Source: a phage. From it: a stretch of 64,000 nt of DNA. This document shows, piece by piece, positions 2,292 to 11,574 of the stretch. The translations under genes and the position numbers were made by a program. The notes below the pieces were generated by a model that was not told the origin of the DNA, ran no database searches, and worked only from the letters and a program-made list of their open reading frames with translations. Positions within the stretch are counted from its first letter, which is position 1; each line of letters opens with the position of its first letter. The stretch is taken from the sequence record PZ000613.1; one strand, 5' to 3'.

Positions 2292-2319
2292 TTGACAGTC
2301 TTTTCCTTTATTATATAGT
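2292..2319 (+). promoter_or_regulatory. Sigma70-like early promoter (TTGACA-16-TATAGT)
   Basis: Consensus -35 with near-consensus -10, A/T-rich upstream, about 40 nt before first rightward gene. Confidence 0.55.
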
Positions 2320-3490: not shown

Positions 3491-3856
3491 ATGCGGTTCA
3501 TTAGATTCGTCGTTAAAATGGTTGTGGGCTTTTTCCTTGTCGTTCTCTTATTGGGTGTTCTCCTATCGTCTATGGGTAGCGTTAAAGCTGCAACCTTTTC
3601 CCCTGATACGGTGGAAGGTTTACAGTGCACCTATTTGATAGAAAACTATTCGACCGGTAAAAAGTCACCTAAGGTTATTATTTTGCATTTAAATGATTTT
3701 GATCAAGTGCATTCATATGATAAAACCATTCAACTGGTAAATGAAACTACCGGTAAACAAATCACGGTCAATCACTTGATGCGCTCATCGTTGACGCTCT
3801 TTGATGAGTCCATGAATGAAATGGCATCCGGTAACGGTCAATGTGTAAATCCATAG
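3491..3856 (+). CDS. Early protein with signal peptide/TM anchor
   Basis: ORF 121 aa, SD AAAGAGG, strongly hydrophobic N-terminus. Confidence 0.65.
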   Translation: MRFIRFVVKMVVGFFLVVLLLGVLLSSMGSVKAATFSPDTVEGLQCTYLIENYSTGKKSPKVIILHLNDFDQVHSYDKTIQLVNETTGKQITVNHLMRSSLTLFDESMNEMASGNGQCVNP

Positions 3857-3931
3857 GCTTAATCTTTATCCTGTATTGTGCCGTAGTCATGCCTATGGTC
3901 ATAATCTATCTGATTCTCTAATCCTTCCTGT

Positions 3932-3959
3932 AAGCCTCCCAGTGAGGCTTTTCTCTTTT
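3932..3959 (+). terminator. Rho-independent terminator
   Basis: Hairpin AAGCCTC-ccagt-GAGGCTT followed by TTTCTCTTTT. Confidence 0.6.
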
Positions 3960-4117
3960 ATAAGGTGATTGTATTCCTTACTCCCCTTTAGCTCGTTGTG
4001 ATGCGTTATAGGCCGCTTATTATTGCTTTACAGGCTGTTTCCTATGATGTATCGCGTGCGCCCGTTCCTCTATCTCTCCCTACAGTGAAAAAGTTTAAAA
4101 TATTTTGCTTTACCCTA

Positions 4118-4145
4118 TTGCATAGCCATAAAACTGGCGTATACT
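4118..4145 (+). promoter_or_regulatory. Sigma70-like promoter (TTGCAT-16-TATACT)
   Basis: Near-consensus hexamers with A/T-rich UP-like sequence upstream. Confidence 0.55.
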
Positions 4146-4244
4146 GATTTCTATCGGGTACGATGTAAAACATACAAGGCAAGGAAACTTGCCCCGCTCT
4201 TTAAGAGTCAGGCTAGAAAGTGAAAAATATTCTTAAAAAGAGTA

Positions 4245-4273
4245 TTGACACCAGAAAAAGCCTGATATATAGT
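4245..4273 (+). promoter_or_regulatory. Sigma70-like promoter (TTGACA-17-TATAGT)
   Basis: Consensus -35, 17-nt spacer, same -10 variant as promoter at 2292; A-tract upstream. Confidence 0.55.
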
Positions 4274-4389
4274 GAGCATAGTCAGCGATGACGTGAAATA
4301 TCCCGCTCTTTAATAATTTATCATCTTGCCCTTTCGCAAAGATTCACGCGAGATAAGGGAAAAGAATAAAAGAAGATGATAAAAAAGGG

Positions 4390-4418
4390 TTGCAAACGTG
4401 GTTAAGGTAGTTCATACT
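4390..4418 (+). promoter_or_regulatory. Sigma70-like promoter (TTGCAA-17-CATACT)
   Basis: Hexamers with 17-nt spacer and A-tract upstream; weaker match. Confidence 0.45.
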
Positions 4419-4691
4419 AACCACAAGTTAGCAAAACATCGCTAACTAGTTCCCAAATCAACGTATCACGGGAAAGGTAGCACATAGTGCAGTGAGTAGT
4501 TCAGGTGTAGGCGGCCTGTTAATGAATAAGTAAGCCTTTAATGTGACAGTGATTAGCAGACACTCTAAAAGGCTAACGCTCTTTAACAATATGAATCATA
4601 AGTTAAGCCTCACCGCTTAATCTTCAATCAAATAAAGCTGATTGATATATCCTCCCAATAGCGGGAACGACGAAAAAGATTAAAAAAGCGG

Positions 4692-4720
4692 TTGACAGCT
4701 AAAACAACATGATTCATAAT
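4692..4720 (+). promoter_or_regulatory. Sigma70-like promoter (TTGACA-17-CATAAT)
   Basis: Consensus -35, 17-nt spacer, A-tract upstream. Confidence 0.55.
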
Positions 4721-5640
4721 GAGCACACTTAAGCAAATCACCGCTTAAGGAAAGCGTAACAACGGCTAACGGTTGCATAGTGTGAGAAAGCACACTGATA
4801 GATTTACCGCTCTTTAATAATTTAAACATTCTCCTATATCGGTTGAATATGTTAGATGATAATAACCATCGGATAACATACCAGATAAAACGGTGTAAGA
4901 CTCTCTAAACTATCAGAGAAAAACAGCCTTACAATCCCTTACTGGAAACGTCACCACTGATAAACGGATTCATTGAGTGCACGCAAAGACTTAAGCTAAT
5001 CGCCCACGGTTAAGGGTAGCGGCGGTCATCGCTAACAAGGCGCTACAGTGAAAGAAGTTAATCAGGGTAGGCAAGCCCGAAGAAATAACGCTCAATTGAG
5101 AGCGGCGGGGAGTGGTTAAAAAGTGGCAAATTGCTATTTAACAATGAGGTTTAGTGTGAACGTTTATGATGTGAACGGCTTGAGATTCATCTTATGATGA
5201 AAGTACATAGTCGGTTTATGTAGTAAACTTGCCGAAAGATATAAAACGTCGGAACATTAGACGGTCAATGACTCTTTCGCAATAGTATCCCGTAGTGGGC
5301 GATGACTGGCGATTGAGAGTTGATATAAAAGGATAGGCGAGAGCGAAAGCAAAGTAAACGATATTGCCGACGGTTACAATAACGTAACTAATTAGAGTCG
5401 GACGCACTGCCTTATTGTGATGATTGATCATCGCTATCAGGTCGGCTTCGTTTATAGCGGCTAATTAAAGATACCAGATGAAACATCACGGATAAGGGGG
5501 CGGCAAGGTTAACTCCTGATAAGACCGCCCCGCTTACCTATAACTACTTACAATGAGTGGTTATAGTTAAGTTAATAGTGACTTAAACAAGCTCATAGAG
5601 AGCGGGGCAATAGCGCCCTTACAATTGAAAGGTGAATATT

Positions 5641-6540
5641 ATGGCTAAAATCTTTAATCTGGTAAAAGAATCTGGCTTTAACGCACTGGCTAACAACATC
5701 CGTAGCAATAACGCGGCTATCAAACAAGATGTTTCTAATTTTCTGTTAGGGCACTTACAGCACTTTCGTAGCAACGGCAAGAAGTTAGATGTATTGCAAT
5801 CGGCGGTAGATTTTCTGTTAACCGAACGTTTCCGCGATATGGACGTGATCGCCACTGCAATCACTTTCTTAACACCTATCAAATATAACACCGAGGCGGC
5901 GAACGGTCGTAAAAAGTGGATTAATCTGGAAGGTGAGGCGAAAGCGAAAGAAGATGCGAAAGAAGCGCAGATCAAGGCGAAAATGGAACAAAACCGCGCT
6001 CGCTGGTCGAATGCTTTCGAGAATTTTGCTTTAGGTCGTGAAATTGAAGTGGATAACCCTAACTTCTTTAAAGGCTGCAATGACAACGTGGCGGCCCACC
6101 TTCAAATACCGGCGAAAAACAAGGAAGATTTTAATCAGGATATTTACGCTTTAGTTGAACGCTTGAATGCAATCCGTATCGAAGCCAAATTGCTGGCTGA
6201 TGAGCGCAACGGCGCTACCAGTGATAACACTATTGCCTTAAGTGAAGAAGTGGGCAAGGTTAAAAAATCTTTCGACACACTGATCAAGAAAGTCACGGCC
6301 TCAACGGTAGCGATCTCCGATGACTATCTGATGAACGCATCAAGCAAAGAACTGGAGTCACTTGATTCATACGCCGATGAAATGGAAAAGGCTGTTACAG
6401 CTATGCAAGAGAAGTTAGAAAGTCTGCGCGGTCGTATCTCCTCAACGGTTGCTACCCGTACCGAACAAGCGGCGAAAGCAGAAGAGGAAGAAGTATTGCG
6501 TAAAGCGGCTGAAATTATGGCGGCACGTCAGGCGGCATAA
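5641..6540 (+). CDS. Hypothetical coiled-coil protein (299 aa)
   Basis: ATG preceded by AAAGGTGA SD; Ala/Glu/Lys-rich predicted coiled coil; followed by terminator. Confidence 0.7.
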   Translation: MAKIFNLVKESGFNALANNIRSNNAAIKQDVSNFLLGHLQHFRSNGKKLDVLQSAVDFLLTERFRDMDVIATAITFLTPIKYNTEAANGRKKWINLEGEAKAKEDAKEAQIKAKMEQNRARWSNAFENFALGREIEVDNPNFFKGCNDNVAAHLQIPAKNKEDFNQDIYALVERLNAIRIEAKLLADERNGATSDNTIALSEEVGKVKKSFDTLIKKVTASTVAISDDYLMNASSKELESLDSYADEMEKAVTAMQEKLESLRGRISSTVATRTEQAAKAEEEEVLRKAAEIMAARQAA

Positions 6541-6564
6541 GTAAGACAATTCGAATAAACATAA

Positions 6565-6597
6565 GGCGCTATCTTAACGGGTAGCGCCTTTTCTTTT
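6565..6597 (+). terminator. Rho-independent terminator
   Basis: GGCGCTA...TAGCGCC stem followed by TTTTCTTTT. Confidence 0.7.
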
Positions 6598-7366: not shown

Positions 7367-7810
7367 GTGGCTAAATCTAAAATCAGCATGAAGGGCGGGC
7401 GTTGTTTTTCTATCTCTGAACTGGAGAAAGAGAAACCAAAGGCAACCAATCACGTTAGCAAGCGTAGTTTAAAACGTCGTGCTGTAAAGGCTGTGGCTGA
7501 ATCTCATATTCCTTCCAGTGTGGCAAAACGTGTAGGCCATCGTGTCCATCGTGCTGATGCGTTGTTGTTAGCTGATCATAAACGTTCTCTGTTAAAGAGC
7601 GGGGGAGCTAAAACAGAAGAAGAGAAGAAGTTAGAAATCTTCTGTAATGGTCGCACTCGAGGTAAACAGAAGTTTAAGGGGAGCACGAAAGACCCTCAGG
7701 CATTCCCTAAGACAAGCCAGTGTGCACCTGATGTTTTCTACGCAGATAGTAAACACAAGTGGGGCGTTGAGAAATACATTGACCCCATCAAAGAGGCAAG
7801 GGTTAAGTAG
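7367..7810 (+). CDS. Hypothetical highly basic protein (147 aa, GTG start)
   Basis: Lys/Arg-rich ORF with SD AAGGAA, followed by tandem terminators. Confidence 0.55.
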   Translation: MAKSKISMKGGRCFSISELEKEKPKATNHVSKRSLKRRAVKAVAESHIPSSVAKRVGHRVHRADALLLADHKRSLLKSGGAKTEEEKKLEIFCNGRTRGKQKFKGSTKDPQAFPKTSQCAPDVFYADSKHKWGVEKYIDPIKEARVK

Positions 7811-11498: not shown

Positions 11499-11574
11499 GC
11501 GCTCTTAGCTCAATGGATAGAGCAGTAGCCTTCTAAGCTATTGGTTACAGGTTCGAGTCCTGTAGGGCGCACCA
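11499..11574 (+). tRNA. tRNA-Arg (anticodon TCT), CCA encoded
   Basis: Cloverleaf: acceptor GCGCTCT/AGGGCGC, D-arm AGCTCAATGGATAGAGC, anticodon loop CTTCTAA, T-arm GGTTCGAGTCC, discriminator A plus CCA. Confidence 0.85.

Follow-up and report, generated by a model that had tools for sequence, protein, structure and literature searches.

We describe a 1.8-kb stretch of phage DNA, positions 3857-5640 of sequence record PZ000613.1, in which predicted tandem promoters, copies of the boxA element of Escherichia coli ribosomal RNA (rRNA; rrn) operons and a large conserved structured RNA lie together ahead of the homologue of phiEco32 gene 124. The window is the whole stretch of DNA that was analysed, 64,000 nucleotides (nt) in length; positions refer to it, and features are on the + strand unless stated otherwise. 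The 1.8-kb stretch is unannotated space between genes 125 and 124, and its counterpart in phiEco32 is about 1.9 kb long and falls within the leftward early gene cluster. Similar sequence (approximately 75-95% identity) was found in 97 phage records, all from Escherichia or Shigella phages of the phiEco32 group, which are podophages of the Gordonclarkvirinae (Kuravirus, Suseptimavirus and Nieuwekanaalvirus). These matches assign the window to a podophage of E. coli that is phiEco32-like (Kuravirus).

The non-coding region begins at an intrinsic terminator (3932-3950; a 7-bp stem with four GC pairs followed by TTCTCTTTT), which closes the upstream + strand operon, where the gene-125 homologue ends at 3856, and which is annotated as a terminator in SU10, 4E8 and SU7. 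At the distal end, a Shine-Dalgarno sequence (AAGGTG, 5629-5634) and the coding sequence of the gene-124 homologue occupy 5629-6540 (ATG at 5641, stop codon ending at 6540; 299 amino acids). A strong intrinsic terminator at 6563-6590, with a 12-bp stem containing six GC pairs and a T-run, is likely to be the 3' end of the transcription unit. No terminator-like site was found in a scan of the + strand from 3951 to 6562. The product of gene 124, gp124, belongs to phrog_13018, a family of unknown function. It gave no Pfam, PDB or fold match, and its AlphaFold model is of low confidence (predicted local distance difference test score, pLDDT, 67).

An initial sequence-only reading had described the stretch as poor in open reading frames (ORFs), non-coding and promoter-dense, and very probably transcribed early by host RNA polymerase, and we concur on each of these points. 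The three + frames of the region contain 156 stop codons, with a longest open stretch of 156 nt; no ORF conserved in position, small ones included, was found among 13 relatives, and the variation between them has no 3-nt periodicity (113/107/116). We note that phage EK5 (L002:2520-4071) and other GenBank records carry 7-10 tiny 'hypothetical proteins' of 30-41 amino acids in this gap, on both strands (seven in EK5). These overlap the promoters, boxA copies and structured RNA, show no conservation as ORFs and are likely to be annotation artefacts.

Predicted tandem promoters and rrn-type boxA elements

Four sigma70-like promoters are predicted in the proximal part of the region. P1 (4085-4145) consists of an A/T-rich UP-like tract, a -35 hexamer TTGCAT (4118-4123), a 16-nt spacer and a -10 hexamer TATACT (4140-4145), with a predicted start at about 4153; its match is too weak for the consensus scan and was read from the sequence, and the cassette is also present in Bas90, 4E8 and Bas93. 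The remaining three each have an A-tract and a 17-nt spacer: P2 (4220-4273; TTGACA 4245-4250, TATAGT 4268-4273, predicted start about 4280) is conserved in relatives, P3 (4365-4418; TTGCAA 4390-4395, CATACT 4413-4418, predicted start about 4425) is replaced by TTGACA promoters in the same slot of some relatives, and P4 (4668-4720; TTGACA 4692-4697, CATAAT 4715-4720, predicted start about 4727) is the best conserved cassette, found in all relatives. All four had been put forward as strong promoters. This description suits those at 4245 and 4692, which score 11/12, but those at 4118 and 4390 are weaker matches (7-8/12), although they too are conserved in relatives and have A-rich upstream tracts.

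Each promoter is followed by a hairpin and the 10-mer CGCTCTTTAA, as the sequence-only reading had reported, with copies starting at 4195, 4304, 4577 and 4808. These four copies lie within 620 nt; only 0.15 are expected per window, and five copies were reached in 0/100 shuffles. At 4196, 4305, 4578 and 4809 the sequence matches GYTCTTTAANA, the gamma-proteobacterial boxA consensus (Baniulyte 2017, PMC5725501), where 0.64 matches are expected on the + strand. The motif is thus the boxA of E. coli rrn operons (GCTCTTTAACAATTT) and not the tail of a terminator: it contains only three U residues, and at none of the units does a GC-rich hairpin precede at least five U in eight positions, the pattern used to define a terminator. 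BoxA is the loading site for NusB and S10 in processive antitermination.

The distances from the end of the -10 hexamer to boxA are 51, 32, 160 and 89 nt for boxA nos. 1-4, respectively. Hairpin GGCAAG-GAAA-CTTGCC (4178-4193) precedes boxA no. 1 (GCTCTTTAAGA, 4196-4206), and this cassette (4178-4206) is conserved in relatives. In the second cassette (4281-4325), a 5' hairpin GTCA-GCGA-TGAC (4281-4292) is followed by boxA no. 2 with its extension (GCTCTTTAATAATTTATCATC, 4305-4325). The first 19 nt of this copy, CGCTCTTTAATAATTTATCA, are identical at 18/19 positions to GCTCTTTAACAATTTATCA of the E. coli rrnH leader, which reads TGCTCTTTAACAATTTATCA. BoxA no. 3 (GCTCTTTAACA, 4578-4588) stands behind hairpin AGCCTTT...AAAGGCT (4533-4574) in the element 4533-4588; it reads CGCTCTTTAACAAT, and its GCTCTTTAACAAT is the same as the rrn sequence. 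The P4 leader (4728-4819) contains a stem-loop CTTAAGC...GCTTAAG (4728-4749), a hairpin AGTGTG-AGAAAG-CACACT (4779-4796) and boxA no. 4 (GCTCTTTAATA, 4809-4819). Compensatory changes are seen in the hairpin at 4779-4796 in relatives, in which the stem appears as GTGTG/CACAC, ACGTG/CACGT or AGGTG/CACCT.

Conservation was examined at 24 related phage loci at which the downstream protein is 46-98% identical. These loci contain 89 promoter-hairpin-boxA modules, every one of them on the + strand, and the sequence [C/T/A]GCTCTTTAA[A/C/T]AA is invariant. Positions that the search left free also agree with rrn (among distinct copies, A at position 12 in 100%, and T at positions 13 and 15 in 80% and 70%, respectively). 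There are three to five cassettes per locus, and the cassette of 40-150 nt in front of a given boxA is often wholly different between relatives. Because the motif is invariant while the surrounding cassettes have been exchanged, selection, as judged from these alignments, acts on the boxA module itself and not on the flanking sequence. In 20 relatives almost all boxA copies are preceded, at a distance of 16-200 nt, by a -35 TTGACA, a near-consensus -10 and an A-tract. Nine metagenomic relatives in which gp124 is 46-70% identical, and in which the DNA is barely or not alignable, have two to three strict boxA copies each (one in a contig that is incomplete at its 5' end) and none on the - strand; the last boxA is 870-936 nt from the gene in these sequences and 832 nt in the window. 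By contrast, a sigma70-like promoter elsewhere in the window (2292-2319; TTGACA-16-TATAGT, 11/12) has no boxA. It precedes + strand genes starting at 2358, with an ORF 40 nt downstream.

The order of hairpin then boxA is also that of the rrn leader. Among 63 distinct 35-nt segments upstream of boxA in relatives, 62% fold at -6 kcal/mol or better, compared with 26% of controls (Mann-Whitney p = 7e-8), and the stems covary and often end 1-13 nt before boxA. The affinity of NusB:NusE for rrn-type boxA (rrnG) is 5-8 nM, compared with 80-90 nM for the boxA of the lambda nut sites, and the core of the phage boxA is the same as that of rrnG. By analogy, the phage elements would bind Nus factors and confer resistance to Rho.

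Two further candidates were rejected. A boxA-like sequence at 5133-5143 (GCTATTTAACA), within a conserved hairpin element (5115-5142), is a C4A variant that is base-paired in the model and is absent in m24, m29 and m30; we judge it to be non-functional as a boxA. C4A is an inactivating boxA mutation (Baniulyte 2017, PMC5725501), and its lambda equivalent, C38A, lowers NusB:NusE affinity approximately 40-fold. A - strand copy of CGCTCTTTAA at 7592 (strict boxA 7590-7601) is antisense within an ORF (7367-7810); it is found in EK5 and NJ01, and since it lies within an ORF and is missing from Bas90 and phiEco32 it is probably due to chance. We also note a perfect 11-nt inverted repeat, TTTATCATCTT/AAGATGATAAA (4317-4383), which flanks a hairpin just after boxA no. 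2 and overlaps the P3 A-tract. The sole Rfam match to this repeat was SAM-VI at E = 0.32, which we regard as noise.

A conserved structured RNA upstream of gene 124

The distal 800 bp of the region (approximately 4827-5618) is a conserved structured RNA of about 790 nt, which is modelled as three domains. The RNA model was derived with RNAalifold from a plain MAFFT alignment of 13 phages with 89% mean column identity. It contains 241 pairs in 35 helices, and 98.4% of the cells are standard pairs. Double-sided changes occur at 60 pairs, compared with 3-11 in slid controls and 26.6 ± 3.2 in shuffled alignments (0/500 reach 60), and the covariation score is 0.229 as opposed to 0.03-0.06. The addition of nine distant metagenomic relatives gave a wider alignment of 21 sequences with 58% mean column identity. 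For this alignment the model has 196 pairs, of which 131 show compensatory change (52-64 in slid and 77.5, with a maximum of 89, in shuffled controls); the distant sequences retain 70-89% of the pairs, and several single-stranded motifs are invariant in 21/21 sequences. The minimum free energy z-score of the region is -6.2. G·U cells far exceed A·C cells (364 versus 15), which identifies the + strand as that of the RNA; the + strand gives 98.6% pairing, and the - strand, if transcribed, would give 87.4%.

Domain I (4827-5114) is closed by an 8-bp helix (4827-4834/5107-5114) in which 8/8 pairs covary, and its inner helices include 4969-4980/5040-5052 (12 bp, nine covarying) and 5089-5093/5100-5104. 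Domain II (5143-5416) is closed by 5143-5150/5409-5416 and 5153-5157/5404-5408 and contains helices 5161-5167/5354-5360, 5176-5182/5206-5213, 5228-5233/5336-5341, 5270-5280/5309-5321, 5283-5291/5298-5308 and 5367-5377/5384-5401, with compensatory changes at most pairs. Domain III (5417-5489) is the core that is most conserved in sequence (GUGAUGAUUGAUCAUCGCU...UUUAUAGCG...ACCAGAUGAAACAUCAC); its outer helix GUGAUG/CAUCAC covaries, for example as GUGGUG/CACCAC and GGGAAG/CUUCCC. Four hairpins follow on the 3' side, at 5497-5531, 5532-5572, 5590-5602 (GCUC-AUAGA-GAGC) and 5605-5618. That at 5532-5572 has 17 bp, 12 of which covary, and may be a target of ribonuclease III (RNase III). The last, just before the ribosome-binding site, ends 10 nt ahead of the Shine-Dalgarno sequence. 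In every relative the gene-124 homologue follows the RNA directly on the same strand, and no terminator separates the two.

The distal part had been singled out as GC-richer, ORF-free and rich in GATAA and in CTTAAG palindromes. It is indeed ORF-free and slightly GC-richer (0.42 versus 0.39), and GATAA is mildly enriched on the + strand, with six copies within 4858-5522 compared with 1.75 expected (p ~0.01). The enrichment of CTTAAG is not significant. Two copies of the latter, at 4728 and 4744, are the arms of the predicted 5' stem-loop of the fourth transcript. The GATAA copies are often found in the context C-N-GAUAA(A/G), and AUAAGAC at about 5519 is kept even in distant relatives; GATAA may represent a motif that recurs in loops of the RNA or is bound by a protein.

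A covariance-model search for known RNA families, which had been proposed as a check, gave no match to the region in Rfam 15 at the gathering score, and hits up to E = 10 were noise only (best E = 0.32). The sole Rfam/ARAGORN match within the 64-kb window is a tRNA-Arg (anticodon TCT) at 11499-11574. No homologue of the RNA was found in 5,426 E. coli genomes, so an origin from the host is unsupported.

The repeat finder and RNAalifold also suggested a leader-trailer helix, similar to that of 16S rRNA, between boxA no. 4 and an 'anti-boxA' at 5599-5604. This helix was rejected because it shows no compensatory change and because its GAGAGC lies instead in the local hairpin GCUC-AUAGA-GAGC, which covaries in PAS59, m21, m26 and m28. 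A companion helix from RNAalifold, in which GATAGATTTACC would pair with the Shine-Dalgarno sequence of gp124, is not kept in distant relatives and was likewise set aside.

Distant metagenomic relatives have another conserved stretch without ORFs, 1.5-1.7 kb in length, on the upstream side of the promoter-boxA cassettes (L019:985-2700, L021:565-2420, L023:957-2500, L024:937-2570 and L029:899-2510), in the position at which kuraviruses have genes 125-128. No ORF of at least 40 amino acids is present in 1,640 nt of this stretch in L023. An RNAalifold model from the five sequences has 73 compensatory pairs, compared with 21-27 in slid controls, and the stretch may hold further structured RNA.

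Interpretation of the locus

Long untranslated RNA is the natural prey of Rho. BoxA-recruited Nus complexes are the host's known means of protecting rRNA and the long untranslated transcripts of CRISPR (clustered regularly interspaced short palindromic repeat) arrays from this factor (Stringer 2020, PMC7665894). For these reasons we read the region as what is probably an rRNA-operon-like early unit, in which boxA-protected transcription passes through the structured RNA into gene 124. Upon infection, the four tandem promoters with their A-rich upstream tracts would be fired by host sigma70 polymerase, and within 30-160 nt each transcript would present a hairpin and an rrn-type boxA (GCUCUUUAA[A/C/U]AAU). 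Host NusB and S10 bound at boxA, together with NusA, NusG and SuhB, would then convert RNA polymerase to a fast, Rho-resistant form able to cross 0.9-1.5 kb of untranslated RNA without a premature stop. Transcription would yield the three-domain RNA at 4827-5618 and continue through the gene-124 homologue to the terminator at 6563-6590. Processing at the 17-bp hairpin may release the RNA from the messenger RNA, and the RNA may act together with gp124. The output is best read as one long, nested set of transcripts and not as an array of short RNAs. We favour the view that the RNA is a functional product in its own right, made in large amounts, and not merely a passive leader, given that the promoters are in tandem, that the fold is large and deep and that gene 124 always accompanies the RNA. 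In the literature that could be searched, neither boxA nor this RNA is mentioned for these phages; two primary papers on phiEco32 transcription that lie outside the search (Savalia 2008; Pavlova 2012) may already map some of the promoters.

Several observations weigh against this interpretation. There is no match to boxC (UGUGUGGG) 3' of boxA within 4100-5700 at one mismatch or fewer, and the predicted accessibility of boxA is just slightly above that of its flanks (0.58 versus 0.45-0.55). The strengths and start sites of P1-P4, Nus loading, Rho resistance, processing and the function of the RNA are predictions, as opposed to the identity of the motif with boxA, its selective conservation and the structure and strand of the RNA, which the sequences show. 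The RNA is richer in G than in C and extensively base-paired, and for that reason might evade Rho even if boxA were lacking. Repression by boxA/Nus complexes is documented as well, as at suhB (PMC5725501). Salmonella phage 7-11 has a similar ORF-free early leader and no boxA. Finally, any action of the RNA in trans or binding to gp124 is conjectural, and the protein model of gp124 is low in confidence and lacks a fold match.

The close spacing of strong tandem promoters, the hairpins adjoining short U-runs and the lack of ORFs speak for the proposal of the sequence-only reading that each promoter-hairpin-CGCTCTTTAA unit is a gene for a small RNA, or a promoter/terminator decoy that titrates host RNA polymerase. 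With only three U's in the run and no terminator on the + strand between 3951 and 6562, neither short transcripts nor terminator decoys are supported: the motif is an antitermination signal, the opposite of a stop, with likeness to rrn that extends beyond the hairpin, and the conserved structured RNA downstream requires read-through. We therefore consider small-RNA genes or decoys very unlikely. If host factors are titrated at all, these would be Nus proteins and not RNA polymerase. The P1 transcript would offer up to four or five high-affinity rrn-type sites (the rrn dissociation constant being that quoted above) from very strong promoters, boxA-dependent repression is documented and phiEco32 is known to shut off host transcription; the array could thus serve mainly as a sponge that draws NusB, S10 and SuhB away from host rrn, or as a repressor of the suhB kind. 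Against such a main role, each boxA stands behind its own promoter, where co-transcriptional loading onto RNA polymerase occurs, the known phiEco32 shut-off factor is gp79, and repression at suhB was tested over distances of no more than about 100 nt, as against the more than 800 nt that separate the last boxA from the gp124 ribosome-binding site. We regard a sponge or regulator as the main role as improbable; such an activity would be compatible with antitermination. Hairpin and boxA are also the vocabulary of nut sites, and the authors of the study on phage 7-11 expect phages of this group to use some as yet undefined antitermination strategy, but an early phage antiterminator acting on the hairpins in the manner of lambda N is hard to reconcile with the arrangement found here. 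The hairpin precedes boxA, as in rrn, and its sequence differs between cassettes, which leaves no common protein site; a full rrn-type boxA binds NusB/S10 unaided, and the signals are on the very first transcripts, before any phage protein is made. A scheme of this kind has, in our judgement, very little probability.

The explanation that the structured region serves gene 124 solely as a cis-acting 5' leader, with a role in translation, stability or processing, draws on its invariable position directly upstream of the gp124 homologue on the same strand, without an intervening terminator, and on the last hairpin ending so close to the Shine-Dalgarno sequence. However, known leaders manage with far less than the roughly 790 nt, more than 30 helices, three closed domains and invariant single-stranded motifs seen here; the presence of two to five strong promoters in tandem points to a need for RNA in bulk, and the helix that RNAalifold proposed between the 5' flank and the Shine-Dalgarno sequence is not kept in distant relatives. 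We hold a purely cis-acting role to be rather unlikely. An AT-rich, promoter-dense, ORF-free region with mildly enriched GATAA might also be an element that acts at the level of DNA, for example an origin of replication, a site for packaging or a set of repeats and palindromes bound by proteins. The covariation is strand-specific (98.6% versus 87.4% pairing), CTTAAG is not enriched and the change in GC skew falls near 2000, at the switch in gene orientation, and not at 3857-5640. Neither the skew nor the covariation lends support to an origin, and an element of this type is the kind of explanation that we find barely credible.

The rRNA-operon-like unit that we favour resembles the E. coli rrn leaders in its tandem strong promoters with A/T-rich tracts, in its hairpin followed by a GCUCUUUAACAAUUU-type boxA (up to 18/19 identical) and in the long, untranslated and highly structured RNA beyond it; the factors expected are NusB, S10, NusA, NusG and SuhB. 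It differs in lacking boxC, in having a boxA for each promoter, in an RNA that is unrelated to rRNA, in the inclusion of a messenger RNA (gp124) and in the 16S-like leader-trailer helix, which is unsupported. T7 is likewise a lytic E. coli podophage with strong tandem host-type early promoters (A1, A2 and A3). It carries the same CGCTCTTTAACAAT as copy 3 at 813-823, which is 63 nt beyond A3 and ahead of the RNase III site R0.3 and gene 0.3. Dunn and Studier reportedly pointed out the T7 boxA. T7 has one shared boxA and a leader of about 100 nt before its first gene, while in the phage described here each of the four promoters has its own boxA, and structured RNA takes up about 830 nt ahead of the gene. 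We note that the 14-mer CGCTCTTTAACAAT is frequent near the ends of T7-sized viral contigs.

The boxA elements of CRISPR arrays and suhB share the consensus and the use of a lone boxA, without boxB, boxC or a phage protein, to recruit Nus factors against Rho (PMC7665894, PMC5725501), but these are chromosomal and single-copy, while the phage element is multi-copy and tied to strong promoters. In lambda nutL and nutR, as is proposed here, a phage boxA and hairpin make host RNA polymerase resistant to termination, although the lambda boxA is of the weaker CGCUCUUA type. Lambda nut sites have boxA before boxB and require the N protein; such an architecture, with boxA 5' of a common boxB hairpin, was not found in the cassettes of the window. 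GOLLD and ROOL are similar in being phage-borne RNAs of hundreds of nucleotides with many covarying helices and no known biochemical function. The phage RNA matches no Rfam model, and its host (E. coli), its phage group and its setting in an early leader behind boxA are different.

In Salmonella phage 7-11 (Grimontviridae), about 1.05 kb upstream of the first early gene, 151, is free of ORFs (L152:6865-7917, - strand). The product of gene 151 starts with MAKLN and gp124 with MAKIF. A single 38-nt local match (E = 0.003) relates this leader to window positions 5240-5275; a profile search and the domain III covariance model gave no match in it, and it contains no match to the boxA consensus. The antitermination strategy of phage 7-11 "remains to be defined" (PMC8948821).

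Implications for the phiEco32 group

The arrangement offers a concrete and testable answer to how phages of the phiEco32 group keep host RNA polymerase going across long untranslated early DNA; since phage 7-11 has no boxA, this answer is limited to the phiEco32 subgroup. Antitermination here would be of the rrn type, would rely on host factors only and would be modular, with one boxA per promoter in a lytic phage, extending the precedents of T7 and the CRISPR arrays. A boxA in the early leader of a lytic phage is already known from T7; the novelty lies in each promoter having its own boxA, in cassettes being exchanged as modules and, most of all, in the large RNA that is served.

A bolder proposal, which we offer as speculation and think doubtful, is that the locus is a viral mimic of an rRNA operon, in which the Nus complex both outruns Rho and chaperones the folding of the RNA while the many high-affinity boxA sites drain Nus factors from host rRNA synthesis. 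If this were true, a large phage RNA would reach high copy number within minutes of infection, perhaps in a particle with gp124, and would represent a new class of large functional phage RNA in E. coli, of which distant relatives may carry a second example upstream. Easily grown E. coli phages, among them members of the BASEL collection, here provide an RNA of about 790 nt in which more than 130 pairs covary; this is rare material, and it places a phage RNA of this kind within reach of genetics, probing and cryo-electron microscopy.

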